Source of the DNA: Schmidtea nova
Taxonomy: Eukaryota
Reading direction: 5' to 3'
Length of the DNA stretch: 64,000 bases
Assembly: GCA_044892505.1 (NCBI GenBank)
Contig: CM097883.1
Location: 424,514,001-424,578,000 of the forward strand
Within the stretch, counting starts at the first letter, position 1, and every line of letters begins with the position of its first letter. The notes beneath the pieces were generated by a model. It saw nothing but the letters and a program-made list of their open reading frames with translations. It had not been told where the DNA came from and searched no databases. Below are positions 38,831 through 64,000 of the stretch, in pieces. The translations under genes and the position numbers were made by a program.

Positions 38831-40376
38831 GATTCCAAAACGATGCTGAATTTTATAATAGTTACAATTTACATCAATAATTAATCATAGTAAATGTTAT
38901 CTCTCATCGTGATATCTTTATTATTTGCCTACCCCTTAGCTGAAATCAAGAGAAACTGTCGTTCGTTACGGTATACATTACTCTCGTATCTACTTAGCTT
39001 TATCTGTTTACGATCAATATTATAGACGGAAAAAAATGGTGATTTGTCTGCTTGGATTTTCAAAATATTGATACCTCAAAACGGAAGCTCTCTCCCGTCA
39101 TGTATCCCTAGCTTATTCGAAAAAACGCTCTTTTGTATTAAATGCGGTCGACCTAATTTTTCTAAGGTTTATTAGACGTTTATCTAGCCATTGTGCTCTG
39201 GTGAGGGTGAACAATTTGTGCCTCCTCACGGTTAAAAAAAATTCTTTCATATCTTTAAGCGTTATCAAAAAATTTTCGTCCCCTCTGTAGCTAAAATGAT
39301 CGGAAAATAATTCCCCGGATTTGTTGGGTGTCCCATGTGCAAGTCTCAACCACTACTAATAAAATTATGCTTTACTATTTATTACTTTACCGTGTGTGGA
39401 GCCCTCGAGCACCACGCCACGGACGGACACCTTGGGAACCTAAAGCTCCCAACGGCGCAAGATTAATATGATAGTTTAAATAGTTTAAATATAACATAAA
39501 TCAAAATGAGATAACTAATAAATTATAATATGATAATGACATACGAATACAACGATATCATAAACGTAAATATACCAAAAATACCTCAATTGAATTCTGA
39601 AAATTTATTGATCAAAATCGGTCTAAACGGTGATCGTCGTCGGGGCAATGTGCAATCTAATGCGAATTTTTAGTTAAAGTCTAAATTTCAGTCTAACAAA
39701 GTCTACTAAAGTCTCACTCTAGTCAAACGTCTAGTCTATCAAAGTCTGATTTTATGAAAAATCTGATCAGTATTTATACTGATCAGTCGTGTCTAGACTG
39801 ACCAATCAGGTTTGGCCAGTTTCATGGTGGTTTTTAATTATTGTTTTTGATTCTAATTAATTTTTATTTTTTAGATTGTATTCTTCCTTGGAGGTCCGGG
39901 TTTCAAAAACAATTATTCAATAACAAGTACTTTTATTTGGTTTTAATTATTATTATTTGTATTTTATTTGTTTTTAGATGTCTCCTGGGCCCGTTAATAT
40001 CTATAAATTCATTTATTTTTATTTATAGCTTGTACTTAGTTATTCTATATTTTTACTATATTATTCCTTTCTTTTAATAAATAAATATTCCCCTTTTTAC
40101 CTTATTTTTCTCTTTTTTGTTTTAATTAATCTACTTTTATTTCACTGTTCCCTCTATTTGGCTGGCCCAACATCACTCGGGGACCCCTAAAATTGCGTCC
40201 CGCAATTAATTATACATTTACACCTATATCATCATACATAAAAATTAAGCAGATAAATGTCAATTTACATATACACAAAGAATCACGTAAGGTGATAGAT
40301 TTTATACGTAAGCACAAAGTCATATTATTGTTAAATGTAAGTGGATCATACATAAAGTGAATGTAATATATCAGTT

Positions 40377-43594: not shown

Positions 43595-43685
43595 TCTACA
43601 ATGATATATACACTTGATTTGTTATCTATTTTTTGATTTTTCTTGTTTTTGTTTTTACATATTTACAATTTTTCGCTTTATTTAT

Positions 43686-44167: not shown

Positions 44168-47100
44168 CTATATCACCATCACTGTCTTTCCTTCGTATCG
44201 CTCTTCATCTTCTATTTGTCTCCAAAATTCTTTACCTTTCGTCCTCCTTTGGAATTCTTTCTGTACTTCTTCCGGTAATTCTATACTGTAGTTCATAATC
44301 TTTATATCTGGCCAATGTGTTATTGGTTTCTTGTTGAATACATCATATATCCATATTATTAATAATACTGTTATTACTGGAATAGTTGCTGCTAGTATTC
44401 CCAGACCAATTAGTTCTCTAACTTGTTTGTTTACGTCCATCTTCGTAATTTCACTCTGGTTAATCATTGGTCCGTATTGTCCCTTTAGTTTATTTAGTAG
44501 TTGTTCTCGTTCTTGTTGTTTTCTTTTAACTTCTTTAATTACTTCTTCCGGCGTCCATCTTGCGTAAGGGTCTATTACTACTTGTTCCGCGTCCATTTGT
44601 TTCGTTGTCTGACTTAATTCTTTAAATTCGAGTTTTCTCACTTTCCCTTTGGACGTTGAGTTTACCGGTGTGTAGTACGTTTCGCATCTTTCCTGCTGAT
44701 TTCCTAATATGTCCGTCTTTTCTACCGCACATATCTCGTATTCGCTATTGAATTTCAGATTTCTGATACTTATTTCCTCTTTTCCTTTCACGTTTCCACA
44801 GTCTCGTGGCTGTCTTTCCCTTTGTTTCTGAACTATTACCCAACATATTTCTAACGTTTTATTGTCTATTCTCCATAGTATAAGAGTTGCTGTAGTATTC
44901 TTTTCGGTTCTTATTTGTATTTCTTGGTTTTTCTGTTGTCCATTAGGTTTAAAGGTAGTGGTATACCTCGCTTTTCCTTTGTTCCGTTGTCTTCTACTTT
45001 TTCGCGTTGTCTTTCCAACTCTTGTTCTGGTGGGTGTTTTATATAATTTGCATTCCAATTCATTTACTGTTATTTTGTCGCTTTTCCTAATCAGGCATAT
45101 TTCGTACGTTTGATTGCTTTCTAATCCTTCTATTTTTATTGTGGTTGTTCCTCTGTTTGTTCGACATTGCGGCGGTGTATTCTGGTTTGTTTTCTTTTCC
45201 TGCTTCTTCCAGCATACGCCTTTGACGTCCGGTTCTATTCCGGTTAACTCTAACATTATAGTTGTTCTCCGTTTGGTGCGTTTATTTCTTCTTCCTCGTC
45301 GTATGAACTTTATTGTTTCCCCAGGTTGAAATGTTTTACAAATTGTCGTTCCTTTCTTGTGTCTTTCTTTTTCTAGTAAACATAGTTCATACGTCCTGTC
45401 TGCTTTTACTTCTGATATCTTGGTTACTTTATTTGTTTTCCTTTTCCGACTCGTCTTTATTTCGCTTACGCCAATTTCTTCGTTGCTTCTGGCCCAACAC
45501 TTTGGGTTGGTGTTTTGGGTGTCGTTCATCTCTGTTACTGCCATTGTGTCAATGTCTATCCCTTCTTCTAACCGTTTTAACATTGTTAATATGAGTGCTA
45601 AACATAGTAATTCTGTTTGGTAGGTCACTCTTTCGGTCTCGTTTGTGGTTACTCTTGCTTCGGGCCTGTCTATGGTAATTTGTATAGTTGGCGTTGTTCG
45701 TCTGTCTATTGTCTGAGGTTTCTTGTTTTTTGTTCCTTGTGTCTCTGTTCCTCTACACTTTCCTACGACATAGTCTCCTTTGGATGGCTGCTGTATTGTT
45801 ATGGTTACTTTGGGTGTTAGGTAACTTGCACATGCAATTGTCTTATGTGATCTCGGATCCTTTGGTTTCCGAACGGTGCACATTCTGTACCAAGTATCTA
45901 GCTCTAGGTCATCGATCTCTATGATTTCTTGTTCGTATTCTGAGATCTTGCAATCCATTGGACTATTTTGTCCCGATATTTTGTCCTTTTTTGACCAACA
46001 TACTCGTTCGATTCCTTTTGCGTTTCCAATTTGTATTGTCGCTCTTTCTTCACATATCATTCCTTGAGTTGGACTAATTAAGGTCATGATTACCGTTAGT
46101 AATAATAGTTCTGGTTTAAAGAATGGGTTTATTGTTTGTTTGTAGCCTGTTCTTTTTATTTCGTTTTTATTTTTATAGTTGTTGTTTCTTTGTTTCCCAA
46201 ATTCATTGTTCTTATCATTTTTCTCTGTGTCCCTTCCTTTCTCTTCACTGTCCTCTTTATCTGATAACTCATGATCCTCTGGATTTTCTCGAGTACTATC
46301 GTCGTCGTTTCCTGTATTGTCACCTCCCTTTTGGTCGTTGAAAATGTCGTCCTCGACATTAATGGCTTCTATCATTTTTTCATACGTTATGGTTGTGAGT
46401 ATACTTGCTTCGTATTCTTGTGTTTCTGCCTGCTTAGGTATTTCCTTATCGGTTAATTTACAATCTAGAATCTCTTTCTTGGCTTTTATCCAATTATTAA
46501 GGTACGTTTTCATTAGTTCTTTCCATTTGTCCGTACGTTCTGTTTCCTTTGGGTTGTTTGTGAATCGTAAATCTTTTCTTCTCATGAAGATATCTATTAT
46601 CTTTGGCCATTTGTTTATTATTAATGCACACTTTATATACAAATTTTGGCCTTGTTCCATGCACTCGTTGATCCTGAATGCTGGTTCATTGGTGTTTGGG
46701 TTCATCCAATTGAGTATTGCTTCAGTTAGTTCAGCGTTATGCATCATGGAATGTACGCTAGCTTTTTTAACTGTCCTTGTAAGGTATTCTATTTCCTCCT
46801 GATTTGTGATTGTTTTTATGAAATTTATCACCTCCCAATTGTGCGCTAACAACGCTACGTCTAGTATTGAGCTGTCTTTGTTAGTTCTTCCCATGAGTCC
46901 TGCACCTGCTTCGTACAGTTCCTGTAACACTCGGGTTTTTGTGTTCGCTCTTGCTGCGAATATCATGAGGGTATCTCCCTTTTTATCTTTCATGTTCATG
47001 TCACTTCCGCAATCTTGCATCAACCGTGCAATTTCGACTACCCTCCTATTTTTTCCTGCTCGTAAGGCTCTATGTATTGGCAATACTCCATTCTTTGTTA

Positions 47101-50100
47101 ATAAGAAAGTCACTGGCATTTCTCTTTTTATGATCATCATATCGTTTTCATTGTAAGTTCCTTCCGCATATGCGTGTACCTTTTCCACAATTGATCCGAG
47201 TATCTCCAGTGTATGTTTAGAATTTTCGAATTCTGGTAATAGTTCTTTTGCTTTGTCCTGTATCGCATCTAACCTTTCTTGATATGGTACCTCTGCGCTG
47301 AAAAGTGGTGTAACTTTCCTTTTGCTTTCTCTTTCCTTTTGACATAGGAATTGTTTGCATTTTTCGGGGTGGTTTAATATGTCTATTAGTTTGTCATACT
47401 CTTCCTCCACCGTTTTGTATTTATCTTGAAAATTGGATATATCTTTGTAAGTTATCGTCTTGGTTAGCGATTTTGCACACCATTCCCTAATTTTCCTGAA
47501 TAATGCTTCTTTTTCACTTTCGAATTTACACTCCTCTTTGTTTTTGGAAATTATGATATTTCTTCTGTCTAATAACGTTAACAGTGCTTTCTGGTCACAA
47601 ACGAATTTTAATAGGAATTGTAATAACGTGTTTTGCCCTTCACTGTATACCTCGTTTATATTTAACACCCATGTATCATTTTCGGATCTTTTCCATTTTA
47701 TTAGCTTGCGTATTGTTTTGCAGTTACCGATTTTTATTGCCTCCTTGATTATATCACCTTTGATCAGTTCGTCTATTTCCCAAGTGGCCTTCTCGATTAT
47801 TTGTTTGAGCATTATCTGATTTGAGCTCCATATTGCGTGATTCAAGACTGTTTTGTTTTCTCTATCGCGTTCCGTCCAGTTGAAATCGGCATTTATCAAA
47901 AGGTCTATTATTGCTTTATCCGATTTGTAGATGGCTGCTATCATTAATGGTGTTTCTTGTTCGCTATTCCCAAAACCAAGGTGTTGGTTTGTTTCCTTAG
48001 CGATTTTTAGAAATTCTTTTACTCTCTCTACTTCTCCCCATTTTATGGCGTTATGTAATGCTGGTTGTCCTCCTATGTCTTGTAGTGAAAGTATTTCTGG
48101 AATTTTCTCCAGTAGTTCTGAAATGACTGGTTTTGTTGGTAGTCCCCTTGCGTAATCACTAATTATCGACTGAATATCTCTTAATATATCGTCTCTGACA
48201 TGCCATTTTCCCATTATTTCTCTGGCTTTTAGTACCATTTCCTTGTTTCTTTTTTCTTGTTGATTGTTTTCTGCTTCGGTACTTTCATTGGTTGCTCTGA
48301 GCATATTCATTCTGGCTGTCTGGGATCTGGTTATTATTCGTTCTTCTGGCGCTGTGGTTATTGTTTTTGGTACTTTCTTACATCTGCATGTATTAACGTA
48401 TATTGGTCGTATCAATGGTCGATTAACAAGTTTTACCTTCACATTGTTTTCCTTTTTGTATATAACTTCGTAAGGGCCTTTTCCTGGTCGTTGTAGTTTT
48501 TTAACGGTTCCTGGTATTATTTCTGGGGTTTCTATCATTACCCAATCTCCGGGTTTAAGATCATTTGTTTTAACATTTTTCTTTTGATCGTGTAGGTCCT
48601 TGTAACTTTCTTGATAAAACTTTATGTTTAGTTCTGCTGTCTTCCATATCTCTTGCATTCGTTCTTTGAATTTGGTGACGTAATCATCTTCCTCCATATA
48701 TTGAGACAAGGGTGGTTGATATTCAAGATCTATTGGCATATTGCATTCCCTTCCATACATTAATTGAAATGGACTCAATTTTGTTGCTGCGTGTATCGAC
48801 ATTCGGTATGCCATTAGACATAGCTTTACGTATTCATCCCAATCTGTTTGGTGTTTGCTTACATAATTGGATAACATTCGAATCAATGTGCCGTTAAATC
48901 TTTCCGTTTGTCCATTGGTTTGCGGATGATATGGTGACGTTCGTAATTTAGCTATTCTGAAGTAATTTGTTACTTCATCTAGTATTTCGCTCATAAAATT
49001 TGTTCCTTGATCTGTTAGTATTTGTTTCGGGGTTCCGTATCGACAACATATTTCTTCTACTAAAATTCTTGCTACGGTCTTTGCTTTTTGATCCGGCATC
49101 GCAAATGCCTCAGGGAATTTAGTCAAATAATCCGTTATTACCAATATATATTGATTCCCGTTTAAACTTTCTGGCAATGGTCCTATTACATCCATCGCAA
49201 TGGTAGTCATTGGTTCCGCTGGTATTGGCATGGGTTTTAAGGGATTTTTCCATTTCTTCCCACTATCCTTTCTTGTGGCACATGTTAAACAGTTCTTTAT
49301 CCATTCCTTTACGTCTTCGTCCATTGTGGGCCAATAATATTTTTGTCTCATGCGATCTAATGTTTTCTTATCGGACATATGTCCTCCTAGCTTTCCGTCA
49401 TGGTATTGAGTTATTATCTCTTTTCGTCTATTACCTGGCAGACACATTAATCGTTTTTCTCCATTTTGTATTAATAACCATCCTTTTTCTATTGTGTATC
49501 GATGTTGGTATTTCCTCATGTGTTCTTTTAACTCCGCATTGTCTTTGAATACATCCATATTCCGTGAGCTTAGGAATTCTATGATGGGTCTTAGTTCTTT
49601 ATCCTCTTGCTGATCTTTCTTTAACTCGCTGAAATCCAAATCCTCTGCTATCACTATGCATATTCTTTGCACTTCTGGGTCTGTTAGTTCTGGAAACGTT
49701 AATCTTGACATGCAATCTGCGTTGGCATTCGCTTTCCCTGATTTGAATTTTATATCTGGTGAATATTCTTGTAATTGCATCGCCCATCTCATTAATCTGC
49801 TGGATGTTTCCTTATGTTGTCCTAGCCATACAAGTGGTTGATGATCCGTGGTTATGCATATAACGTGTCCCCATAATAGATATTTAAAGTGTTTTATTGC
49901 TAATATTATTGCCAATGCTTCTCTTTCCGTTACCGAATAATTCTTCTCGTGTTTCTTGAATGTTCTGCTATAATATCCGATTACCCGCTCTTTTCCCTCG
50001 TCATCATATTGTCCTAACACTGCTCCTGCTGCATATCCACTTGCGTCGGTTGCGAGTAAAAATGGCTTCTTGAAATCCGGGTGAACCAATATTGGTGCAG

Positions 50101-53100
50101 TTATTAACTTATCTCGTAATGTTTCGAAGGCTGTTTGTTGTTCGCTTCCCCATATGAACGATACGTCTTTCTTTACTAGCTCCTGGATTGGTTTTGCAAT
50201 TCCTGCGTAATCCTTTATGAATTTTCTATAGTAACCGCATAATCCGAGAAATTCTTGGATCTGCGTTATCGTCTTTGGTACTGGACATTCTTTTACTTTA
50301 TCAATGTTTCTGGGATCTGGTTCCTTTCCTTTTGCGGACACAATATGTCCTAAGAATGTCACTTTCTCCTTTGCCCAATCGCATTTCGATGGTTTGAGCT
50401 TGAGTTTCCATTGTCTCAATCTAACAAATACATCTCTGATATCTTGGATGTGTTGTTCAAATGTGCTTGAGTAGATCAGTAGGTCGTCAATGTAAACCAT
50501 GCATTGTTTTATGCCGTGGGTAACGAAATTCATACATCTTTGAAATGATGCTGGCGCATTGGTTAGTCCAAATGGCATTTTCCTAAACTGGTACAAGTCT
50601 CTTCCGATAGTGAAAGCAGTTTTCTCTTTGTCTTCCTCTTTCATTTTAATTTGCCAGTATCCGCTTTTCAAATCCAATGATGTAAAATATGCCGCTCCTT
50701 GTAATGTCAATAACATCTCGTTGATGTCCGGTAATGGGTATGTATCCCTTTTTGTAACTGCATTTAATCTCCGATAATCAATACAAAATCGTTGTGTTCC
50801 GTCTTTCTTTTTCACCATTACAACTGGGAACTGCCACGGTGAGCAGCTTGGTTCAATTACTTCTGCGTCTAGCATTTTCTGTACTTCTGCTTCTGCTACT
50901 GATTTTTGCGCTTCAGCTAACTTGTATGGTCTTAACGCAATAGGCGTTTCGTCTGTTAGTGGAATCGTATGTAGTGTGACGTCGCATGTCCCTAGATCTA
51001 AATCGGATGCTGCGAATATGTCTTTATATTCTATCAGTAATCTTTCTAGCTGTTTCTTTTGGTCCTCATTTAATAGTTGGCTATCAATGTTCCAAGTGGG
51101 TTCCTCCTCTTTTACTCCTTCTTTTATTGGTATTTCGATATCCATCATTGGAGTTAGTTTACCTAATCTTTCATTTTCATAAATTATTTTATCCTCTTCA
51201 TCGAAATTTACTACATTTATTGGGATTTCTCCGTTGTCATTCGCACTCACTAATCCCCTTGCCATTGGCAACGACTTTCTCTTTTCAAATCTTTTACTGG
51301 GTTCAAAGATCATGTCGCCTTCTATTGTAGGATCTATTTTTACGAAACATATTTTCTCTCTCCGTGCTGGTACGATTATTTGTTTCGAACTTGTTACTTT
51401 TGCTTCTATTGCGCATATCTGTCCTGTCCTATCCTTTAGTCTCATTGTTCCGAGATCAATAACTATTTCTTTAAATAATGCTGGCATCAGATCCGTGCCT
51501 ATAATGCATGGTACGCTCAGTGCTGGTATTACTGCTACGTACGTTTCGATTTCCGTGTTTTGATGTTTTATCTTTACCCACCATCTTCCGGCAACTTCTA
51601 CTACTTCTTTACTGCATGCTATTACGTGAACGTTGGTTCTCTCGATATCCCGTCTTTGTTCTTGTGGTATCCATTTTATATCTATTGCTGAGATATTTGC
51701 TCCTGTATCAATCATCGCTTCTATTTCCCTTCCGTTAATTTCGATTGTTGTAGTTAATACTGGACCGGTGTTTGATGACATTACTGCAATTGTATGTGAG
51801 TCTCCTTGCGGATCTACGCTTCTGCACCGTCTCGTTCTATAGTCTTCTGGTATCATAGGATATATGTTTGTCATCGGCATCATTTGCATTGTATTTTGTC
51901 TCATCCCTGGTGTTGGTTCTTGGTACATGGTTGGTGGGGGTGCGTAACATTTCCACATTTCCGCTGGATTCTTTTCGACATACTGTGGTACTTGATTTTT
52001 AAATACTTGACCTCCTTCGTTATCATCATCATCGTCGTCACTGGAATCGTCTTGGGTTCTGTACCCTTTCATTCTTTCCCATAGTCCTTTTCTCTCTTTC
52101 TTGAGTCGTTGTCTTGCTTGCTCGTTATTCATTATCTTTTTAAATTTTCGTCCCACCTCTTCATCGGTTCCTTTCATTTTTGCCAGTATTTTTAGGAGTC
52201 TCTTTATTCCGTGAATATCTTTTGAATGACCGTGTAATACCATTGTTTTAGCCAAAAATGGTAAGAATCCTACCACCAATTTCCAATTTACTTTCTTTTC
52301 TCTTTTATAGATGTCAAAACAGGCTAACATTTGAGTTATTATTACCCGTATTATTTGTATAATTAGTATAACACCAAGTATTCCTGCCATCATTTGTCCA
52401 AATATTAAAAATCTTCCCCACATCGCTTTCATCATGTTTTCCGTTGCCTTCTTAAAGTGGGCTGGTGACAATAATAATTCGTAATTTGGTCCACCTTGGT
52501 AATTTGTTCCTCCTGTTATTGTTACAATACTGGATAACACCGCTTCTCGTCTTGCCGGAAATAGTATGTTTTGTCTTGCTGCTTCTAAATCCTTTGCACT
52601 ATAGAATCCCATATTGCTTACATCTACGTCTTTAAATTTTCTTCCTTTTGATAGTTGCATCAATTCAAATTCCCTTGGTGCTGGTACCTCTGTTCTTGAC
52701 GGAAACATAACCCAATTCCCGTCTGGATTTTGGTATAGTGGTCCATATGCGTTGCTGCAATTGAAAGGGTTTGGTTCGAAACTTACTGGATTTATGATTC
52801 TTGTCACTGGTTGTACATATCTTACTTTCCCTTTATATTCGATTTCTAGTTCGTTAGTACACTGACCTGGTTGTAGTTTTGTCATTGTTGCCACCTTTGT
52901 GTTCGTCTTTTTACATATGTATACGTACATGACCTCTCCGACTACCCTTCCAAAATGACCTTCTCTTAATGGTAATAATGGCATTGCACTATCCGGGTTT
53001 GTGATTGCTACCGCTAGTTTTGTCTTTAATATTTCCCTATTTAATATGCAATCGTTGTTAATTAAATCGTAATACACTTTTTGTAGTGACGCTTGTCCTC

Positions 53101-56100
53101 TATGGAACAGAAAATCCATTTTATTGTTCATGTAAAGGTGTAATTTAACATCGTTCGTGTGCACTTTGCGTTTCGCACTAGGTACTTCTTGTTTTGATAC
53201 AAAAATGCCGGGGTAGTTGGTTTCCAACATAGCTACTCCGCATTTCAAGGCTGTTTTTCCTTTTACAAACCTCATTCCGATATCTGCATCTGAGGTAATT
53301 AGTACCGTTGGTGTATTTCTCATTTTAATTTGTTTTTCTTGTGTTCGGGTTTCAATCTTTTTCTCTCCCCGTACTGTGTCTTGAAGTATTTTTCCTCTTG
53401 CTGCCTCGTCTTCTTCTTCCTCTTGGAAGGTTTTCCCTTGTATCTCATCGAATTCTGCTTCCTTTAACAGTTGTAGTTGACATTCCTTTCCTCGTATCTG
53501 GTAGGTTAAGGTTGACATACCGGTTTGGCAAGTGTTTGACTCGATTTTGCACATTGGTAGGGTTTTCATTTCTCCCGTTGTTGGATCGAAGAATGCCTCG
53601 TACGTTTTTAATTCCACTGTATAAGTATCTATTACTACTAGGTTGGTTGCTGCTACTCCGAATATTGGATATGTTGCTCCTTGGCAATACCCTTCTCCTC
53701 CCGTAATAGCTCCTGCTACATAATATGTTTGTTGCAATATCACTCCCGTTTTTCCTCTTATCTTTACTCTATCTCTAGTCTCTACTTCTCCATGTTTAAA
53801 TAATTTTTCACAGTCTTCTCCTTGCAGCATTACCGATTCTCTTTCCGTTCCTGGCATCACGATTGCTGAATAATGGCGGTGTCCACAATAAAAAGCAAAT
53901 CTGGTTTTATAAACTTTGCATTCCCTGACCATTGTTCTTATCAGTTCAGCTTCCTGATATACGTGGTATAATTGTCTCTTTTTTAATGTTTTTAACTCCG
54001 TTGGGGTTGCGTCCTTACATTGTTCTGTCCCTCGTAGTGAATATTTCTCACCTAATGCCATTTGATCACAATCGAATACTTCAAATGCTGTTGCTCCGTC
54101 AGTACTAATCATCCATATTAACATCATCATAATGATAGAACTCAGGTTTAGTGATGATTTCCCGTTTCCTGTTCCCGACTTTTCCTTTTCCAATTCTCCC
54201 AATATCTCTTCGAATTTCTTTTTCAAATTTTTGGCTTGGTTTTTCTTTTGGTTCGTTTTTGTGAATGTTTCCCATCCTCCTTTACTGATGATGTACGGTT
54301 CTATTTCTTTCTCTATAATTTTGGCTGTATTCTTTATATGTCTTTCGAGTGCTGTAGGTTTCAGTCGACCTCTACTCAGTGTCAACAGATTGTAAATTGT
54401 GTATGCCATAGCTATTAAATATTTGTTATCCGTCTCTGCTCCTTCCGTTAACTTCTTTATCAACATCGTGGTTCCTTGCCAATCTAGGTGGTTTGACCTT
54501 GTCTTCTCTTTTATTAGTTCTGGTAGGATTGGTGCGATGGCGCTATGCAGTGATTTCGCCCTTTCGCTTATTTCGTTTATTCTCCACCATTTCTTTAATT
54601 CTGGATCGATTATTGCCAGTATTTCCATTAACATCTTTGATATCCATTCCTCGCCTTGGTATGTTTGTGTTGTTTCTTTTTCTTTCGTTTCGGCTATTTT
54701 ATTTAGTTTCTTTAAACACAAATCCCATTGATCCCGTCTTTTTTCCTCTCTTGATTTTATAACTACATTTGCTGGATCCATCTTGGGTCTACCTCTAGGT
54801 CGTTTATCCATTGTCGTGCCCGTTTCTACCAATCTTGTTTCTCGTCCAGTTTCTTCTGTGACGTCTCTTGGTTCATTGGCTCTTTCTTCTAACCATCTTT
54901 CCATTTCTTGTGTGAATTGTACATTTTCTACATTTGCCCTCCTTGCTTCCTCTTCTGCTATTTCATTTACTTCTTCGATGATTATTTCTTGTTCAACTTC
55001 ATCTTCGGTGTTGGTTACCGGTATTGCTGTTGGTAATTCTTGAATTCTTTCGAAAATATTATCATCCTTCTCTTTTGTTAGCTCTATTAACTCCTCTAAC
55101 ATATCATCGCTATCTGTAAAAATTTCGTCTACATCGTATGGTTCTGGTGGTGTTCTTTCTCTTGTCTCTCTTGGTGTTGTTTTAGCTTGTTCTGAGCTTG
55201 TTCCTGGAGTCATTACCGATTTCATTGGGCTCGGCGTACTCATACTTCCTTTTGGTTTCTTTTCCTCTTTCAATTTCAATGGTTGGCCTGCTATTGCTGC
55301 CACTGTCAATGTATTTGCGATATCTAATTGCGCTGGCGTTATTCCAATTTCCAAGCTGTTATCTAATGATCGTCCTTGGTGTTGTAAATGGAATGGTGGT
55401 TCATATCTCAATTTCTTTTTAATGTCTCGAACTTTCTCCGCTATCCCTACCCAAAACTCTTCCTTTTCTTGGTTCGGATATACTATTCTTAGGTGTACTT
55501 TCTGTGGCGATTCCTGCGAGAATTCTTGGTTTCTCCATTTTTTAATTACGTGATCCAATTGTTCTGGACACCACTCGTTAACTCTTTTGTATTCGGCGAT
55601 TGCTTTTGCTACTTTACGCAAGCATGTTATGTCTTCTCCATTAACTACGAAAAAATCTGCGAGACCTTTTACTACTTTTCTCTTGCCGTGCGCATTGGTT
55701 TTTAATATTTCGACAAATTCTTCCGTTTTTTGTTTCTCTCTTTCCAACCACATGGTTGCCGTTTCTGGTCCGTCTAAATCCGCTGGCATGGCTTTTCTTG
55801 TTACCATACAGACTCTTCCGGTTTCCGGTTTGTGATCGTCTTCTATGCCTATTTCATATTCTTCTTCGTACTCGCCTGCTTTTGGTTCCCAACATTTTCC
55901 TCGTTCGTTCCATTTCTTTTCTACGGGTGTTAGTAATCGTCTGTTGAGATTGAGTTCTTCTAATACATCTTCCCATTCTGGCCAAATCCGCCAATTTCGA
56001 TAAATGTCTACTATTTGTTGTAATTTATGCACAACTTCTTTTTGTCGTTCCCGTTCTCTTTTCTCATCCTTAGCAGTTTCTCTTGGTGTATCGTCCATTC

Positions 56101-59100
56101 TGATAACGTGGATGGTTTGATGATTATCCCATATACCAATTTTATATAGCCGTCTTTCATCGTGATCCCATAATACATGTTCGTTGTATTTCATGATTAT
56201 GTCATCTTCCCATTCTTCTTCTGGTTCTCTTTGTAATAGTGTCTCGTTGATGACATTTACTAATTCTTTTATGGTACAATCTGCTACCACTTCAATTTCT
56301 TTGGTATCCTCATTAGGTAACTCTACTGCAATTTTCAGATCTGTTATTTTCCCTTGTCTGAACATTGCTTTTCCCATTTTGGCAATTACTTTTCCGTATG
56401 AGATCTGTGACCATCTCGTGTGACTTGTGTCACGTATGCACTCGATACATCGTTTCAACTTTTCGTATTCGCTTCTCATTAACTCCTTTCTATGTTTTTT
56501 GATTTGTGGGATGATTTGTTCTATCATGGAATTTAGATTTCCTCGTAAGATTCGTCCTTTTTCGTATTCTAACCGTGGTTTTATCTTCCTCTCGAAACAC
56601 ATATTTGCTTCCTTTGCTACTTCTTGTAGGTTCTCTTCTCTCTTATCATCGCATATCGATAATGTTGTCACCTCTCCTGGCCATATGCCTGTTTCTATCA
56701 AATGCGTCCTTTTCTTCACTAGTCCATTCTGTGAATAGAGGAATTTGTTTTTATATGAACTCCCTAATCTATCTTCTACCCATTGATAAATATCTTCCGT
56801 GAGTGGAGTTTTGATCCAAATCCTTGGCAAACATGTTTTTATCTCTATTAGGATTATATATTCATGGAGTGGTTCTTTTAATAATTTTCCTACGTATTGG
56901 CTTAGTGTTTCTACTTCCCGGCCTGGTAACCACTCTTTATAGTTCATTTGTAATATCGCTCTCATGAATTTCCGATAGTGTTTCTTGTCGATGAACTCCT
57001 CATTATATATTACTTCTAGCGCGTTATCTAATAATTTCTGGATCTCGTCCTCTTTTACTTGAATAGTTTCTGGTGTCTTTACTACTTCTATCTTTTTGTC
57101 TTCAATTTCCGGTTCGTTTAGCATATCTCCGGCTAGACTACTGACGTCACTATCCTCTTCGTCATCTGAAAAATTCTTTGCCTGGCCTCTCAACATGTTA
57201 ATGTGTTTTATCTGGTTGATTTCACTTGGTGTATTTTCCGTTGGTCTTGTTTCACTTTTAATAGCTTTTTGTGTTGATTCACTCTTGTCGTCTACTACTT
57301 CGACCTTTCTCAATTTTCGTTCTAACTCGTCTATTTCTCCCAACCGTCTTCGTATCATTTTCCCTTTAAATATTCGACTGATTCGTGTTTCGTGACGCAC
57401 TGGCGATGGAATTCCTTCTGGTTCTATTTCCTTGATTACCATCACATTTCTTTTTGTCTCTACTACTCCCATGTTTTCCCATGTATCCGTTAGTTTCAAT
57501 TTTACTTCTGGTGCATCTTCTATTTTTAGGAATGCTTCTCTGGGCAGTTTCGTTACTCCTGGAGCCATTTCATTCACTTTGTTGAACAATGTTCCTACTT
57601 CTTCCTTTATGTTATATTGGAATCGAAACATATGACCGTTTGGCAGGATTACCATCATTCCCTTTTTCCAAATCATTCTTTTCTCTTCCTGGTTTGCCTC
57701 TGTTTCCACTTCCTTTTCTATTTCTGTTTCTTCGCTTCCTGGTACTATTTCTTTTCGATTTTCGTTATTGGTTGGATTCAGGTTTGTTGGATTTATTTCT
57801 GGCACAGTCTCTTTCTCGTGGGTATTTGCTTGATTGGTTGCTCTCATCATATTAATTCTTAGAGGTTGTCGTTCTCTTTCTTGCTGTTTTTGTTCCTCTT
57901 CTCTTTGTACTCTTGCCCATTCCTGAGCATGTCGTGCTTGACTTTCCCGATTCAATCGTTCGTTTTCGCTTTCTATTTTTCTCATCATATTGATTTGTTG
58001 TTGACCTGTTTGCGGATTTCCTCTGGTTGTATTGTTTATCAGCTCCGTCAATCTTTGAACCTCTTGCATTAAATGTATCTCTTTAGTGGTATTTTTATTT
58101 TGGTTATTATTATTACTATTTGGTTGGTTTCCGTATTCCGGTTGGTTTCCATTATTTGGCTGATTTCCATAATTCTGTCGGTTTCCACCAGTTGGTTGGT
58201 TTCCATAGTTTTGTCGGTTTCCGGTATTCTGCCAGTTTCCTCGTTGATTGCTTCTTTGTCCGCAATTTCTTGATAGGTGTCCAGGTCGTCCACAATTAAA
58301 ACAGGTTATTGTGTAACATCTGCTCTCTGAATGCCCTTTTACTCCACATTTTCCACAATTCAAGTTCTGATAACATTCTTGTTGCCAATGTCCCAATTTC
58401 CCACATGTTTTGCATTGTTTCGTTGGTCCTTGGGGGTTGTAATTGTTTTGATTTCCGTAATTTGATACTTTATTCCCTTCATTCCTTCGTTGCGGTGGTG
58501 GTCGGTTTAATTGTTGTGAATTTGGAATGTGGTTATTCAGGTTCACTTCTTGTTCGTTTTGTGCTGTATCCATAGCTAAATAGATTCTACCATCATTTCC
58601 TATCATGTGTAGTTCAAATCTATTAGCTGTTTCTAATGCTTGGTCGATGGTTTTACAACCTTGACATCCAACTTGCGCTCTTATGTCGGGTCTTCTTAAT
58701 CCTCCCACAAAGATAGCTGCCATTAATTCCTCATTTATTGGACTGTCTTGATTGAAAATCAACTTTGCTAACTTTTTCAATTCGCTTGCATATACCGCAT
58801 TCGATTCATTTATCTTTTGTTTCCTCATTGAGAATTCCGTAAATGCCTCATTCAATACTTTATTTATTCCGAAGGTTTGTTGGAAAAAGTCCTTTATCGC
58901 TGACCAACTTGTAGGTGGATTAATTCCATTTTTTGCTTCCAAATATAGATCTAATGCGCTATCTTTTAAATATAGCTGAATTCTGCTTACAGTTGTTTCT
59001 GGTTTCCACTTGCATACTTCCACGAATATGCCAAATTCCTTTAAGAAAGTTTCTAATTTACTCGCATCTCCATTAAACGGTTCTCCGGAAAATTTGTCTT

Positions 59101-59125
59101 TTATCTCTTCTCTGGGTTCGCTCAT
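44168..59125 (-). CDS. 4985-aa Gag-Env-Pol-cargo polyprotein in one uninterrupted ORF
   Basis: Single frame in ORF track; domains listed separately. Confidence 0.95.
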   Translation of the reverse strand: MSEPREEIKDKFSGEPFNGDASKLETFLKEFGIFVEVCKWKPETTVSRIQLYLKDSALDLYLEAKNGINPPTSWSAIKDFFQQTFGINKVLNEAFTEFSMRKQKINESNAVYASELKKLAKLIFNQDSPINEELMAAIFVGGLRRPDIRAQVGCQGCKTIDQALETANRFELHMIGNDGRIYLAMDTAQNEQEVNLNNHIPNSQQLNRPPPQRRNEGNKVSNYGNQNNYNPQGPTKQCKTCGKLGHWQQECYQNLNCGKCGVKGHSESRCYTITCFNCGRPGHLSRNCGQRSNQRGNWQNTGNRQNYGNQPTGGNRQNYGNQPNNGNQPEYGNQPNSNNNNQNKNTTKEIHLMQEVQRLTELINNTTRGNPQTGQQQINMMRKIESENERLNRESQARHAQEWARVQREEEQKQQERERQPLRINMMRATNQANTHEKETVPEINPTNLNPTNNENRKEIVPGSEETEIEKEVETEANQEEKRMIWKKGMMVILPNGHMFRFQYNIKEEVGTLFNKVNEMAPGVTKLPREAFLKIEDAPEVKLKLTDTWENMGVVETKRNVMVIKEIEPEGIPSPVRHETRISRIFKGKMIRRRLGEIDELERKLRKVEVVDDKSESTQKAIKSETRPTENTPSEINQIKHINMLRGQAKNFSDDEEDSDVSSLAGDMLNEPEIEDKKIEVVKTPETIQVKEDEIQKLLDNALEVIYNEEFIDKKHYRKFMRAILQMNYKEWLPGREVETLSQYVGKLLKEPLHEYIILIEIKTCLPRIWIKTPLTEDIYQWVEDRLGSSYKNKFLYSQNGLVKKRTHLIETGIWPGEVTTLSICDDKREENLQEVAKEANMCFERKIKPRLEYEKGRILRGNLNSMIEQIIPQIKKHRKELMRSEYEKLKRCIECIRDTSHTRWSQISYGKVIAKMGKAMFRQGKITDLKIAVELPNEDTKEIEVVADCTIKELVNVINETLLQREPEEEWEDDIIMKYNEHVLWDHDERRLYKIGIWDNHQTIHVIRMDDTPRETAKDEKRERERQKEVVHKLQQIVDIYRNWRIWPEWEDVLEELNLNRRLLTPVEKKWNERGKCWEPKAGEYEEEYEIGIEDDHKPETGRVCMVTRKAMPADLDGPETATMWLEREKQKTEEFVEILKTNAHGKRKVVKGLADFFVVNGEDITCLRKVAKAIAEYKRVNEWCPEQLDHVIKKWRNQEFSQESPQKVHLRIVYPNQEKEEFWVGIAEKVRDIKKKLRYEPPFHLQHQGRSLDNSLEIGITPAQLDIANTLTVAAIAGQPLKLKEEKKPKGSMSTPSPMKSVMTPGTSSEQAKTTPRETRERTPPEPYDVDEIFTDSDDMLEELIELTKEKDDNIFERIQELPTAIPVTNTEDEVEQEIIIEEVNEIAEEEARRANVENVQFTQEMERWLEERANEPRDVTEETGRETRLVETGTTMDKRPRGRPKMDPANVVIKSREEKRRDQWDLCLKKLNKIAETKEKETTQTYQGEEWISKMLMEILAIIDPELKKWWRINEISERAKSLHSAIAPILPELIKEKTRSNHLDWQGTTMLIKKLTEGAETDNKYLIAMAYTIYNLLTLSRGRLKPTALERHIKNTAKIIEKEIEPYIISKGGWETFTKTNQKKNQAKNLKKKFEEILGELEKEKSGTGNGKSSLNLSSIIMMMLIWMISTDGATAFEVFDCDQMALGEKYSLRGTEQCKDATPTELKTLKKRQLYHVYQEAELIRTMVRECKVYKTRFAFYCGHRHYSAIVMPGTERESVMLQGEDCEKLFKHGEVETRDRVKIRGKTGVILQQTYYVAGAITGGEGYCQGATYPIFGVAATNLVVIDTYTVELKTYEAFFDPTTGEMKTLPMCKIESNTCQTGMSTLTYQIRGKECQLQLLKEAEFDEIQGKTFQEEEEDEAARGKILQDTVRGEKKIETRTQEKQIKMRNTPTVLITSDADIGMRFVKGKTALKCGVAMLETNYPGIFVSKQEVPSAKRKVHTNDVKLHLYMNNKMDFLFHRGQASLQKVYYDLINNDCILNREILKTKLAVAITNPDSAMPLLPLREGHFGRVVGEVMYVYICKKTNTKVATMTKLQPGQCTNELEIEYKGKVRYVQPVTRIINPVSFEPNPFNCSNAYGPLYQNPDGNWVMFPSRTEVPAPREFELMQLSKGRKFKDVDVSNMGFYSAKDLEAARQNILFPARREAVLSSIVTITGGTNYQGGPNYELLLSPAHFKKATENMMKAMWGRFLIFGQMMAGILGVILIIQIIRVIITQMLACFDIYKREKKVNWKLVVGFLPFLAKTMVLHGHSKDIHGIKRLLKILAKMKGTDEEVGRKFKKIMNNEQARQRLKKERKGLWERMKGYRTQDDSSDDDDDDNEGGQVFKNQVPQYVEKNPAEMWKCYAPPPTMYQEPTPGMRQNTMQMMPMTNIYPMIPEDYRTRRCRSVDPQGDSHTIAVMSSNTGPVLTTTIEINGREIEAMIDTGANISAIDIKWIPQEQRRDIERTNVHVIACSKEVVEVAGRWWVKIKHQNTEIETYVAVIPALSVPCIIGTDLMPALFKEIVIDLGTMRLKDRTGQICAIEAKVTSSKQIIVPARREKICFVKIDPTIEGDMIFEPSKRFEKRKSLPMARGLVSANDNGEIPINVVNFDEEDKIIYENERLGKLTPMMDIEIPIKEGVKEEEPTWNIDSQLLNEDQKKQLERLLIEYKDIFAASDLDLGTCDVTLHTIPLTDETPIALRPYKLAEAQKSVAEAEVQKMLDAEVIEPSCSPWQFPVVMVKKKDGTQRFCIDYRRLNAVTKRDTYPLPDINEMLLTLQGAAYFTSLDLKSGYWQIKMKEEDKEKTAFTIGRDLYQFRKMPFGLTNAPASFQRCMNFVTHGIKQCMVYIDDLLIYSSTFEQHIQDIRDVFVRLRQWKLKLKPSKCDWAKEKVTFLGHIVSAKGKEPDPRNIDKVKECPVPKTITQIQEFLGLCGYYRKFIKDYAGIAKPIQELVKKDVSFIWGSEQQTAFETLRDKLITAPILVHPDFKKPFLLATDASGYAAGAVLGQYDDEGKERVIGYYSRTFKKHEKNYSVTEREALAIILAIKHFKYLLWGHVICITTDHQPLVWLGQHKETSSRLMRWAMQLQEYSPDIKFKSGKANANADCMSRLTFPELTDPEVQRICIVIAEDLDFSELKKDQQEDKELRPIIEFLSSRNMDVFKDNAELKEHMRKYQHRYTIEKGWLLIQNGEKRLMCLPGNRRKEIITQYHDGKLGGHMSDKKTLDRMRQKYYWPTMDEDVKEWIKNCLTCATRKDSGKKWKNPLKPMPIPAEPMTTIAMDVIGPLPESLNGNQYILVITDYLTKFPEAFAMPDQKAKTVARILVEEICCRYGTPKQILTDQGTNFMSEILDEVTNYFRIAKLRTSPYHPQTNGQTERFNGTLIRMLSNYVSKHQTDWDEYVKLCLMAYRMSIHAATKLSPFQLMYGRECNMPIDLEYQPPLSQYMEEDDYVTKFKERMQEIWKTAELNIKFYQESYKDLHDQKKNVKTNDLKPGDWVMIETPEIIPGTVKKLQRPGKGPYEVIYKKENNVKVKLVNRPLIRPIYVNTCRCKKVPKTITTAPEERIITRSQTARMNMLRATNESTEAENNQQEKRNKEMVLKAREIMGKWHVRDDILRDIQSIISDYARGLPTKPVISELLEKIPEILSLQDIGGQPALHNAIKWGEVERVKEFLKIAKETNQHLGFGNSEQETPLMIAAIYKSDKAIIDLLINADFNWTERDRENKTVLNHAIWSSNQIMLKQIIEKATWEIDELIKGDIIKEAIKIGNCKTIRKLIKWKRSENDTWVLNINEVYSEGQNTLLQFLLKFVCDQKALLTLLDRRNIIISKNKEECKFESEKEALFRKIREWCAKSLTKTITYKDISNFQDKYKTVEEEYDKLIDILNHPEKCKQFLCQKERESKRKVTPLFSAEVPYQERLDAIQDKAKELLPEFENSKHTLEILGSIVEKVHAYAEGTYNENDMMIIKREMPVTFLLTKNGVLPIHRALRAGKNRRVVEIARLMQDCGSDMNMKDKKGDTLMIFAARANTKTRVLQELYEAGAGLMGRTNKDSSILDVALLAHNWEVINFIKTITNQEEIEYLTRTVKKASVHSMMHNAELTEAILNWMNPNTNEPAFRINECMEQGQNLYIKCALIINKWPKIIDIFMRRKDLRFTNNPKETERTDKWKELMKTYLNNWIKAKKEILDCKLTDKEIPKQAETQEYEASILTTITYEKMIEAINVEDDIFNDQKGGDNTGNDDDSTRENPEDHELSDKEDSEEKGRDTEKNDKNNEFGKQRNNNYKNKNEIKRTGYKQTINPFFKPELLLLTVIMTLISPTQGMICEERATIQIGNAKGIERVCWSKKDKISGQNSPMDCKISEYEQEIIEIDDLELDTWYRMCTVRKPKDPRSHKTIACASYLTPKVTITIQQPSKGDYVVGKCRGTETQGTKNKKPQTIDRRTTPTIQITIDRPEARVTTNETERVTYQTELLCLALILTMLKRLEEGIDIDTMAVTEMNDTQNTNPKCWARSNEEIGVSEIKTSRKRKTNKVTKISEVKADRTYELCLLEKERHKKGTTICKTFQPGETIKFIRRGRRNKRTKRRTTIMLELTGIEPDVKGVCWKKQEKKTNQNTPPQCRTNRGTTTIKIEGLESNQTYEICLIRKSDKITVNELECKLYKTPTRTRVGKTTRKSRRQRNKGKARYTTTFKPNGQQKNQEIQIRTEKNTTATLILWRIDNKTLEICWVIVQKQRERQPRDCGNVKGKEEISIRNLKFNSEYEICAVEKTDILGNQQERCETYYTPVNSTSKGKVRKLEFKELSQTTKQMDAEQVVIDPYARWTPEEVIKEVKRKQQEREQLLNKLKGQYGPMINQSEITKMDVNKQVRELIGLGILAATIPVITVLLIIWIYDVFNKKPITHWPDIKIMNYSIELPEEVQKEFQRRTKGKEFWRQIEDEERYEGKTVMVI
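44346..46115 (-). other. C-terminal type I membrane module: internal signal peptide, four Cys-containing FN3-like repeats, TM
   Basis: PELLLLTVIMTLISPTQG signal; repeats CW...I.(G/D/N)L...(T/S).YE(I/L)C...C..Y.T at ~45810-46060, 45320-45510, 45030-45265, 44665-44895; TM LIGLGILAATIPVITVLLIIWIY 44346-44413. Confidence 0.6.
46815..48085 (-). other. Ankyrin-repeat region (two clusters)
   Basis: GQPALHNAIKWG, QETPLMIAA, NKTVLNHAI (47790-48085); GVLPIHRAL, GDTLMIFAAR, DSSILDVAL (46815-47097). Confidence 0.8.
48380..49420 (-). other. Integrase (HHCC, D,D(35)E, GPY/F)
   Basis: HDGKLGGH...CLTC; MDVIGPL (D 49190), TDQGTNF (D 49010), GQTERFN (E 48902); GKGPYEV. Confidence 0.95.
49700..50070 (-). other. 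RNase H
   Basis: LATDASGYAAGAVLGQ; NYSVTEREALAI; TDHQPLVWL. Confidence 0.95.
50330..50970 (-). other. Reverse transcriptase (Ty3/gypsy type)
   Basis: FCIDYRRLN, YPLPDINEML, LDLKSGYWQI, MPFGLTNAPASFQR, VYIDD (50483-50494). Confidence 0.97.
51430..51760 (-). other. Aspartic protease
   Basis: EAMIDTGANISAI (DTG 51701-51709), CIIGTDL. Confidence 0.95.
52230..54147 (-). other. Envelope glycoprotein, chuvirus-G / herpes gB-like (class III) type, with signal peptide and TM
   Basis: Signal LSSIIMMMLIWMISTDGATA; FDC..SL..C; ECKV..R..FYCG; CG..L.ETNYP.IFV; Y.NNK; LYD/YYD...C.L; GE..Y..C; C.NEL...PVTRI; GFYS..DL...I.FP; WGRFLIFGQMMAG TM. Confidence 0.85.
54263..54650 (-). other. Bcl-2-like helical domain
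   Basis: BH2-like IEPYIISKGGWETF at 54263-54301, preceded by ~120 aa of predicted amphipathic helices; BH1 NWGR not conserved. Confidence 0.6.
55290..57665 (-). other. Up to four ubiquitin-like (beta-grasp) domains
   Basis: Best: LKIAVELPNEDTKEIEVVADCTIKELV...IMKYNEHVL...RLYKIGIWDNHQTIHVI (56095-56340); weaker at 57430-57665, 56655-56855, 55290-55500. Confidence 0.5.
58262..59125 (-). other. Gag: capsid domain plus three CCHC zinc knuckles
   Basis: PFNGD...W..IKDFF...RKQKINES..YA.EL..LA...FVGGL; CKTCGKLGHWQQEC, CGKCGVKGHSESRC, CFNCGRPGHLSRNC (58262-58414). Confidence 0.92.
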
Positions 59126-61218: not shown

Positions 61219-61680
61219 TTATAAATAAACTACAATTCTATCAGCTACAGAGAAATTGCACATGGGGCACTTATCACACTTATTCGCACAGTTTTTACAA
61301 AATCGAAAATGTCCGCATGGTAGAAACATTATTTGGATTTCACTGTCTTCGCATATGTAACATCGTTTATATTGTTTTGTTGCCTCGACCCCTTGCGACA
61401 TCCATCGGTTATAAGTTAGGTTTAACTGCTGTTCTATATGTCGGCATCTGATATTCAACTCGGCATCCTCTAATCGTGCTTTGTACCATTTATATCGCGT
61501 ATTTATATCGAGTTTATTTACTTTCTCTATGATTTTTATTAACTCAGTTGTTTCCTCCGTTTGTGTCGTAGGTTCCTCATATTCGGATGCTCTTATTCGG
61601 GTTATTTTTTCGCAGACTGTCTCAAATGTATCGTTCTCGGTGTTGAAAAATTCCTCGATTTCTTTCAGTTTTTCCTCCAT
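61219..61680 (-). CDS. 153-aa protein with C-terminal IAP-type RING, no BIR domain
   Basis: CYICEDSEIQIMFLPCGHFRFCKNCANKCDKCPMCNFSVADRIVVYL-stop. Confidence 0.85.
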   Translation of the reverse strand: MEEKLKEIEEFFNTENDTFETVCEKITRIRASEYEEPTTQTEETTELIKIIEKVNKLDINTRYKWYKARLEDAELNIRCRHIEQQLNLTYNRWMSQGVEATKQYKRCYICEDSEIQIMFLPCGHFRFCKNCANKCDKCPMCNFSVADRIVVYL

Positions 61681-61933
61681 TTCCTAGATAATTTATTTAA
61701 TTACTGTGTTAATATTATTCGAAAAGTAGTACTGTGTTTCGTTTCTGACAGTTTTATAGCCTCCCCCCGTGTTTCGGTAAATTGTCGTCCCGACCTGTTA
61801 TTTATGAATGCATTTGTTCAATTTATCTACTAATTTGTTTTAATTTGTTTTAATACTATTTCTACTCACAAAATTCTGACTTTAAATTTCTCTGTTGTCA
61901 TTGGGTTCACCTTTTCCGCATAAAACAAAGTTG

Positions 61934-61951: not shown

Positions 61952-62519
61952 AATTTATGCTGGGATTATGGGTGGGTTTTAAGTAATTCAAATAAATAGT
62001 TAATCATTAATTGAACGACTATTGATGAGTACGTATACTAGGGATTCCACGCCCATAACCATACATAACATGACTACTACACGCGTATGCCCTTGACTAT
62101 TCCCTACTAGCCAAGTTGGTACTGCATACGGTGGTGGAAAAATGATGGGCAGGTGAGCTTTGTTGCCAAAACTACTCCCCATTTATCTTCCCTCGGGTCC
62201 TTGCTGCCGATAGAAGGTCTTACGCATTTACATTCTATGGATGTTCGCTTCCTACTGAATTTTATACTACACATCCTTATGATCTATCACACGCTTTTCC
62301 CCAATTTCACTATCCTTAACTGATCTACAAGGTAATTAATCAGCTCCTACGTAGAAACGGTCGGTTTGAGAAAAATGCGGCTGCGATTTTTTACTTCTAG
62401 GATTTAGCTATTGTTATTTTATTTTATTTAGTGAATTCACACGATGAGAGAAAAATTTTACACAGTAATACTTTTATTAAAATAATAAAGACAGGTTGTT
62501 ATTTTACATTGAGGTTTTC

Positions 62520-63104
62520 CTATTCAAACTCCAGGCTAATCTCCTGGATTAACTCTGCTTCGGTTAAGGAGTTCAGGTGGTGGATTTGTTCGTCCAGGCG
62601 CTTTGCAAATTCTCGGCGACGACGGCGCTGTCGCGATCCCATTCGATGTTTTCGAAGCTGTTGGTTTATGACCGGTGCTGACGCTATTATTCTCGGGGGA
62701 TCACTGAGAAAAATAGGCAAATCTTCCGTTGTAAGAGTGGGTGCCATGATGATATCATCTTCTGTCCCGCAAGCGACATCTTGGTGAGTGCATTGTATCC
62801 AGCGCTGAGCCGTGATCGGCCGGATTAGCGCTCGCAATTCGGAGTCGATGTAACTTCTTGTTACTGCGTTCAGGCAATTTCGGAGTTCCCGCTGGACGGC
62901 ATCTAGTTCCAATTTGGTTGCGGCCAGTGCTTCCTGCATCCGCTCAAGTTTTTTCGACTGGTCCTTCATTTGTCCGGGCGAGAACCACTTCGCCCTTAAT
63001 TCATCATTGGCGACCGTGAGTCGCTTGATCTGTCGCTGCTGGTCCCTCAACTTCCTTTCTTGGATTTGTCCCATGATTTTCTTGGAATTTTCTGTAGTCG
63101 GCAT
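62520..63104 (-). CDS. 5' LTR copy of 194-aa ORF
   Basis: Identical translation to 37451-38035. Confidence 0.55.
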   Translation of the reverse strand: MPTTENSKKIMGQIQERKLRDQQRQIKRLTVANDELRAKWFSPGQMKDQSKKLERMQEALAATKLELDAVQRELRNCLNAVTRSYIDSELRALIRPITAQRWIQCTHQDVACGTEDDIIMAPTLTTEDLPIFLSDPPRIIASAPVINQQLRKHRMGSRQRRRRREFAKRLDEQIHHLNSLTEAELIQEISLEFE

Positions 63105-63422
63105 GTTGTCTGAATATTATAACGATAAATTCGCTGGAGGACCTATCAACAATGTTATTTTATTTAGTCTACTCTTTATTATTATTAAACGAGATGTATA
63201 CTAATGTTTTTAATTATCGAGTTCTTTACAAAAATATTTAACTATCTAACCATTGAAGACTCAAAAGATTTATTGAACTAATTTTGTATTAATAAATGAA
63301 TTTCCTAATGACTATAACAACTACAATACTAAATCTACATGACAACACTATTAACAAAATGAGACACTTCAGACTTCTTTAAAACATTTATTAAATTCAA
63401 AAATAGGTGGCCATTTATTCAA

Positions 63423-63899
63423 TTATCCATCTCCGGTCGTTTTTCCCCGATACGAAAATATCGATTTAATTTGCAAATTTGTGTGGATTCCCGTGCTATT
63501 GGACGAGGCTTGCTGGAAGCGGATTCTCTCAGCTTCTCGAAGGGGTCGTATGGCTGTATTGAACTTGAACCCCAATTCCTTGAAGGTAGAGGCTGGAATG
63601 AACCCCCAATAAATGACACATTTCGGGAATCCTCCTTTGTCCAACATCAGGATGAACCAGGCGGCGTGCCATGATTCGAATTCCTCGTCTGGAATGATTG
63701 GCCAACTAGCGCATCCCCGGTACCATACGTGGTGCCGTGGATGGTCCCATACTGTAAATGGACAGGCGGTTTCGAGCTCTCGGCGCCATGCCCACATCTT
63801 TTGATGGATTTGCTGTAAAATCTCGAAAGGAGCCGGCTTTAATGGGCTAACTCGGGCTCGTTCTTGTCGTTTTTTGATAGTGTATCTATGCTTAGTCAT
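63423..63899 (-). CDS. 5' LTR copy of 158-aa ORF
   Basis: Identical translation to 38354-38830. Confidence 0.55.
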   Translation of the reverse strand: MTKHRYTIKKRQERARVSPLKPAPFEILQQIHQKMWAWRRELETACPFTVWDHPRHHVWYRGCASWPIIPDEEFESWHAAWFILMLDKGGFPKCVIYWGFIPASTFKELGFKFNTAIRPLREAERIRFQQASSNSTGIHTNLQIKSIFSYRGKTTGDG

Positions 63900-64000
63900 G
63901 ATTCCAAAACGATGCTGAATTTTATAATAGTTACAATTTACATCAATAATTAATCATAGTAAATGTTATCTCTCATCGTGATATCTTTATTATTTGCCTA

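Follow-up and report, generated by a model that had tools for sequence, protein, structure and literature searches.

Can the polyprotein of an LTR element carry a Bcl-2 domain, and can the signal peptide of the envelope protein encoded behind it double as the membrane anchor of that domain? Bcl-2 mimics are well known in large DNA viruses but not in reverse-transcribing elements. The question is raised by a stretch of Schmidtea nova DNA (the window, 64,000 nucleotides), in which the original prediction placed a Bcl-2-like domain directly before the signal peptide of an Env protein. The span it gave, 54263-54650, coincides almost exactly with the folded core that we delimit here (Table 1).

The element, its open frame and its copies

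The domain belongs to an LTR element of 28,353 bp. Its LTRs (3,284 bp each) are identical and its target duplication is 4 bp long (ATAT), which together mark the insertion as recent. In the same genome, a search finds two close families with at least 150 copies between them (150 were scored among 1,145 candidates, and all matched). The 150 scored copies show 83-100% identity, and many lie in frames of 5,140 or approximately 5,660 codons. Among the closest copies, a stop-free frame runs from the Bcl-2-like domain into Env in all 30 that were fetched.

Table 1. Position of the features of the element, in coordinates of the window.
Feature	Position	Strand	Remarks
5' LTR	61958..64000	-	extends 1,241 bp beyond the end of the window; identical to the 3' LTR
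Accessory gene upstream of the frame, C-terminal C3HC4 RING	61219..61683	-	PF13920, E 9.5e-12
One open frame, Gag-Env-Pol	59371-44168	-	5,067 codons
Gag, capsid-like part and two zinc knuckles	58212..59125	-	PF03732 (below cut-off), PF00098
Extra N-terminal helix, L-x-x-I-A, loosely BH3-like	54674..54733	-	outside the Bcl-2 match
Predicted Bcl-2-fold core, eight predicted helical segments	54248..54667	-	model residues 24-163
BH1 NWGR position, here T-D-N-K (degenerate)	54422..54433	-	counted back from the near-invariant helix 5 Tyr
BH2-like motif ending in GGW	54263..54304	-	frame residues 1690-1703
Linker, charged, partly helical	54158..54247	-	poorly conserved between families
Internal Env signal: basic n-side, short hydrophobic core, A-T-A before the predicted cut	54086..54157	-	
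Env, Monjiviricetes-type fusion glycoprotein, C-terminal membrane helix	52337..54085	-	PF24664, E 6.5e-72
Protease, reverse transcriptase, RNase H, integrase	48866..51751	-	Pfam; order PR-RT-RH-IN
Two ankyrin-repeat blocks	46400..48100	-	Pfam
Accessory gene downstream of the frame, TRAF-like (zf-TRAF and MATH)	42212..43621	-	Pfam
3' LTR	36889..40172	-	3,284 bp

Pol (from 51751, minus strand) lies in frame behind the Env membrane helix (52337; frame residues 2327-2345), so the start of Pol would also be tethered to the membrane, on its cytosolic side, and Gag, Env and Pol would be produced in equal amounts. At the end of the frame, after the ankyrin blocks (44168-46110, minus strand), another segment resembles a signal (residues 4422-4440); it is accompanied by beta-rich Cys/Trp repeats, which match fibronectin type-III faintly (E 0.08), and by a final membrane helix. 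From these features we predict that Pol ends in a second surface protein.

Each LTR contains an open frame of 198 codons and one of 176 (37451-38884 and 62520-63953, minus strand), neither with a significant Pfam match. Three more accessory frames lie within 40377-44045 (minus strand): two are coiled-coil-like (368 and 119 codons), the third (197 codons) has a signal-like start and a membrane helix, and Pfam gives no significant match for any of them. The 5' leader (60084-60764) carries three tandem-repeat arrays with units of approximately 43-45, 41 and 30-31 bp. Adjoining the insertion site, two overlapping frames on the plus strand (35621-36824) resemble, by eye, a broken hAT-type transposase; Pfam has no match for them at E 0.05. 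The RING of the upstream accessory gene (61219-61683, minus strand) is of the kind that occurs in IAPs. This gene is possibly a reduced counterpart of the B-IAP of Burro1; Pfam gives no BIR match in the frames scanned, which include part of the short ones. Finally, two segments (56404-56042 and 55534-55232, minus strand) look ubiquitin-like by eye, and the likeness is clearer in families D and E (L079; the families are described below). They agree with the Ubi/SUMO-like motif named in the available text of PMC6431247; for the ubiquitin-like and dUTPase-like parts named there, neither Pfam nor a PDB sequence search gives a match in the element.

Motif and predicted fold of the domain

The starting point was a BH2 pattern before the Env signal. 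The motif is in place; the strict pattern as first written has no match, the window's copy differing by two conservative changes (I for L, and Y for W at the aromatic position). A relaxed pattern has a single match in the window (all six frames) and none in 5,000 polyprotein shuffles, and a still looser one turns up in 9 of 5,000, both patterns having been picked after the motif had been seen. Compared with the Pfam Bcl-2 model (PF00452), the window's domain on its own gives E 0.09 and 13.8 bits, below the curated cut-off of 31.4. A PDB sequence search with this single domain gives no match, a protein atlas search gives no usable match, and word-index protein searches, a method insensitive at such divergence, give none either (a profile search did find relatives, as described below). 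The single domain is thus barely recognizable, and homology rests on the sister families and the fold. Just upstream of the domain (54750-54770, minus strand) we note a short basic R-G-R-P motif, which we take to be AT-hook-like; it is kept in families A, A2 and B and in the outside proteins P0002 and P0003.

We built two AlphaFold2 models, from alignments without recognized cellular Bcl-2 rows and without templates. The first (15 rows, including the linker and the signal) is weak, with a pLDDT of 54. When it is compared with 48,161 chains, ranks 1-34 all have the Bcl-2 fold, the best with Z 14.0, and the first unrelated chain has Z 5.8. The second model (alignment A4, with 26 rows, three of which are fragments assumed to be element-derived) reaches a pLDDT of 79 and a pTM of 0.72. 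In its comparison with 48,161 chains, ranks 1-35 have the Bcl-2 fold and the first unrelated chain has Z 6.0. Here Hydra Bcl-2-4 (by VIA, Z 13.1, rmsd 3.0, 136 aligned) and Bfl-1 (Z 13.0) are matched at a level, Z near 13, at which the comparison tool warns about helical bundles. Foldseek lists Bcl-2 proteins first, none of them at E 0.001 (best 5.2e-3 and 2.4e-3 for the two models), and in a viral structure library vBcl-2 proteins come out on top, again none at E 0.001. The structural comparison that the original prediction had proposed thus turned out in its favor, and on these models the domain has a predicted Bcl-2 fold.

Sister families and selection

A Pfam Bcl-2 search of the genome recovers host genes and also element frames of approximately 3,000 codons (families B and C). 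The domain in these two families matches the Pfam model at E 2e-8 to 8e-7, and three of the four tested are above the cut-off, at E 2e-8 to 6e-8. Families D and E were recovered by an Env-family search that is blind to Bcl-2. Together with the window's own family (A) and its sister A2, the six families examined form three deep lineages that are approximately 20% identical to one another. The original prediction had tied its case to conservation of GGW among relatives of the element; GGW is kept in all six families and is invariant in alignments A2 and A3. At the fetched loci, the domain, GGW, the hydrophobic segment and the start of Env share one frame in 10 of 11 cases, the eleventh being frame-broken upstream. 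Profiles of the element families match Bcl-xL at E of approximately 1e-7, mainly over helices 4-8, and the helix 2-3 region varies in length between families.

Could the domain be a helical bundle that carries GGW by chance? The faint Pfam score of the window's domain on its own and its lack of a PDB sequence match would fit such a bundle. The idea is refuted by the Pfam matches of the sister families and by the coherent fold list, and the profile matches to Bcl-xL and the absence of the relaxed BH2 pattern from 5,000 shuffles also speak against it, so that we give it next to no weight.

A profile search against 1.84 billion representatives finds 19 proteins. Six share the domain-signal-Env layout (five of these match PF24664), a further one combines Gag with the domain, three fragments have no Env, and nine proteins are apparently cellular. 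One of the outside relatives (P0005) apparently has more than one protease-like stretch after Env.

Two pairwise comparisons between the window's family and sister family A2 give dN/dS values of 0.054 and 0.043 over the core, versus approximately 0.10 in the flanks (upstream and in Env), with dS of approximately 1.1-1.3, near saturation. To judge from these ratios, the Bcl-2-like domain is under strong purifying selection.

In the host itself, small divergent Bcl-2 genes (L036, L038, L042, L050, L056 and L059), related to P0013, form an expanded set. There are also two Bak-like host loci (L035 and L037), and a probable BH3 exon (L096:795-977) lies approximately 10.8 kb upstream of the BH1-BH2 exon of one of them. 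We considered the subfamily of L036 and P0013 as the donor, as a shared helix 5 Tyr suggested, and rejected it, the element rows not being grouped there in the tree. In this tree (77 columns, long branches, no viral rows; three element rows are fragments without Env), the element rows form a single clade with support 97/92, a result that is partly circular because the rows were picked by the element profile.

The Env signal as a possible anchor

The original prediction located a hydrophobic Env signal approximately 40 amino acids after the motif. In the window's copy an uncharged hydrophobic segment does start 38-40 residues past GGW, and the match to PF24664 (E 2.5e-20) sets in within it, at model position 6. 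In all four families tested, the segment lines up with the beginning of the Env family model. For this reason it most likely arrived with Env, and because it corresponds to the signal of the Env family, its conservation can be explained without a second role. We also considered it as Bcl-2's own tail and rejected this on the same alignment.

From GGW to the start of Env there is at most one hydrophobic segment in all 12 element rows (above threshold in 11). These rows usually have basic residues before the segment, and the mature N-terminus usually follows directly on small residues; the cleavage site is predicted from this small-residue pattern. There is no Met between BH2 and the segment in this copy, in families B and E, and in the outside proteins P0002 and P0005, which favors use of the segment as an internal signal. 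A Met in the linker or where the segment begins does occur in many sister copies and in families A2, C and D; Env may have a start of its own in those rows.

Signal peptidase cuts past the signal, and the signal remains on the upstream chain; signal-peptide peptidase could remove such a segment. From the order of the parts in the frame, the segment would stay on the upstream product as an anchor, which would start in the ER rather than in mitochondria, with clipping possible. Unless the domain is released by the element's protease, the entire Gag precursor would be anchored. What the original prediction overlooked is that the domain is not a free protein: it closes, at the C-terminal side, a Gag-containing precursor of approximately 1,680 residues. 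The proposal that the cleaved signal provides a C-terminal anchor fits the topology: there is one hydrophobic segment, and it would stay upstream. Against it, the segment in the window's family is short (10 strongly hydrophobic residues; best 19-residue mean 1.47). It is also far from BH2, lying 26-56 residues after GGW in element rows versus 13-23 in five cellular matches, and the window's family has no basic residues behind it, unlike a mitochondrial tail anchor.

A remodelled groove and the possible role of the domain

BH1 is degenerate, as originally proposed. At this position glycine and tryptophan are each found in only one of the 26 rows (near-copies included), arginine in five and lysine in 16. 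A basic residue thus occupies the arginine position in 21 of 26 rows; families D and E have valine there. In the same 26 rows core residues are retained while groove residues degenerate. Two published cases help to read this pattern, as given in the available portions of the two texts. In Bcl-xL, G138A impairs Bax binding, and BAD binding survives (bioRxiv 10.64898/2026.06.23.733989); in vaccinia N1, acidic residues replace the GR of NWGR, and the protein is still described as anti-apoptotic (PMC2885619). Taken with the loss of BH1, these cases make a canonical groove unlikely in the element's domain, which may bind BH3 motifs all the same. A predicted complex of the core and a BH3-like stretch of 32 residues from a host Bak-like gene scored 0.00; with the alignment unused and the fold of the partner uncertain, this score speaks neither for nor against binding.

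What might such a domain do? We tentatively prefer the following reading, while giving it somewhat less than an even chance: an ER-tethered, remodelled Bcl-2 domain closes the Gag part and likely damps host cell death via a non-standard surface. A host Bcl-2 gene would have been captured once, early in the history of the element. The nascent chain would be inserted co-translationally into the ER, signal peptidase would cut after A-T-A, and the Env signal would be retained as the tail anchor of the domain, for which the rubella capsid offers a precedent. The element's protease may then free the domain from Gag, and a pro-survival function would operate alongside the RING, TRAF and ankyrin products of the element. 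A bolder form of this proposal seems doubtful to us. In it, a captured Bcl-2 domain and the signal peptide of a negative-strand-virus glycoprotein, also captured, would make up a working, membrane-anchored viral Bcl-2; a single hydrophobic helix would export Env, tether Gag and anchor an anti-death protein, which with IAP and TRAF products would keep host stem cells alive.

The absence of NWGR could also point elsewhere. Poxvirus A46, A52 and B14 are grooveless, and the element's domain may be an adaptor of their kind, blocking innate immune or NF-kB signaling together with the TRAF and ankyrin products; a TRAF-like gene and ankyrin repeats are indeed encoded here, and all three poxvirus proteins are present in the fold list. 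Their scores (Z 6.5-8.0) are below those of cellular and BH3-binding proteins (Z 10-13), however, and BH2, which is retained in the element, is to our knowledge not typical of them, so that we judge such an adaptor unlikely, if a serious contender.

A role in promoting death is less likely again. The domain, or the extra helix before it, might act late, promoting membrane permeabilization or cell death and so aiding particle exit. BAK, BAX and BOK match the second model at Z 10.7-10.9, level with several pro-survival proteins, and the L-x-x-I-A helix upstream of the core, loosely BH3-like, is kept in families A, A2, B and C and less so in D and E. Yet the helix is without the conserved BH3 aspartate in B and C, its form is not kept in D and E, and the genome tolerates the two close families in at least 150 copies. 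We regard this possibility as improbable.

The domain may instead have a structural job, with no role in cell death, as a membrane-facing, matrix-like adaptor by which the Gag precursor is held at the ER beside Env and Pol for assembly. In each of the families examined it occupies the place between Gag and the Env signal, whereas TRAF is found now in ORF1, now in an accessory gene (this element, and the text available from PMC6431247). The decay of groove residues around a preserved core would suit such a job, and reference titles in PMC3040668 state that the rubella E2 signal is required for capsid localization and assembly. On the other hand, the signal by itself would tether Gag, the element has several other death- and ubiquitin-signaling modules, and a basic residue persists at the arginine position in most rows (21 of 26). 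On balance we think this alternative unlikely, though still in contention.

If the domain is pro-survival, as in the reading that we tentatively prefer, these elements would influence cell death both at the membrane and at the caspase level; should it be structural, a Bcl-2 fold would have been reused for particle assembly. The present work provides the limits of the domain, strong constraint, a remodelled groove and a testable topology.

Comparison with known systems

For planarian Burro elements, PMC6431247 describes, in its passages on them, a BCL2-like motif (credited to Grohme 2018) and an env in frame between BCL2 and protease, and it asks for experiments on host apoptosis. In an excerpt of PMC8532177, BURRO1 is called abundant and active. 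An excerpt of PMC13465017 reports second-hand from Lee 2026 that the RING-BIR (IAP) region of Burro1 protects stem cells and is anti-apoptotic; the IAP part of Burro reportedly aids regeneration, and its Bcl-2 part is noted in this partial literature. The combination of a BCL2-like motif and an in-frame env is thus already published, and by its layout the window's element is a further member.

Like Burro (GYPSM1) in these passages, it is a giant gypsy-like LTR element of approximately 28 kb with a frame of approximately 5,000 residues, a likeness by description rather than by sequence. It likewise has Gag, a BCL2-like domain, an in-frame Env, PR-RT-RH-IN and ankyrin repeats. Its internal region is above 20 kb, its Env lies between the BCL2-like domain and the protease, and TRAF/MATH and ankyrin parts are present. 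TRAF/MATH is in an accessory gene in both, downstream here and upstream in the element described in that part of PMC6431247. Many sister copies have open frames of 5,140 codons, as does one Burro-like ORF1 according to that text, which may be a coincidence. Unlike Burro1, the upstream accessory gene here has a RING and no BIR match. Section 7 of PMC6431247, on Burro, contains no fold test, BH1 analysis or anchor proposal. What is new here, resting in part on models, is fold-level support, a BH1 position that has lost its glycine in 25 of 26 rows, and a conserved topology compatible with the idea of the signal as an anchor. In a literature search we found no study of the function or anchor of the Burro Bcl-2 domain; Grohme 2018 and Lee 2026, including their supplements, may cover it.

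With cellular Bcl-2 family proteins (Bcl-xL, Bfl-1, Hydra Bcl-2-4, BAK), the domain shares the predicted fold, BH2, a central hydrophobic helix and a hydrophobic segment after BH2. It differs from them in being without NWGR, in its identity of 11-15% in structural alignments, in a longer linker, in a shorter hydrophobic segment that is the Env signal, and in being embedded in a polyprotein. With viral Bcl-2 mimics (BHRF1, KsBcl-2 and A179L; the divergent N1, F1L and M11L) it has in common a captured, diverged Bcl-2 fold in a mobile genome, and with N1 in particular a degenerate BH1. Those mimics, however, are free-standing genes of large DNA viruses, whereas the element's domain is part of a Gag-Env precursor.

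For the proposed anchor, the rubella capsid is an instructive comparison. According to the available portion of PMC3040668, this capsid retains the E2 signal, which takes it to mitochondria, and the product blocks Bax. It is without a Bcl-2 fold, unlike the element's domain, and its signal is needed for mitochondrial targeting, not for protection. What the two would share, on the topology proposed here, is the use of a downstream glycoprotein's signal on the upstream protein as a membrane anchor.
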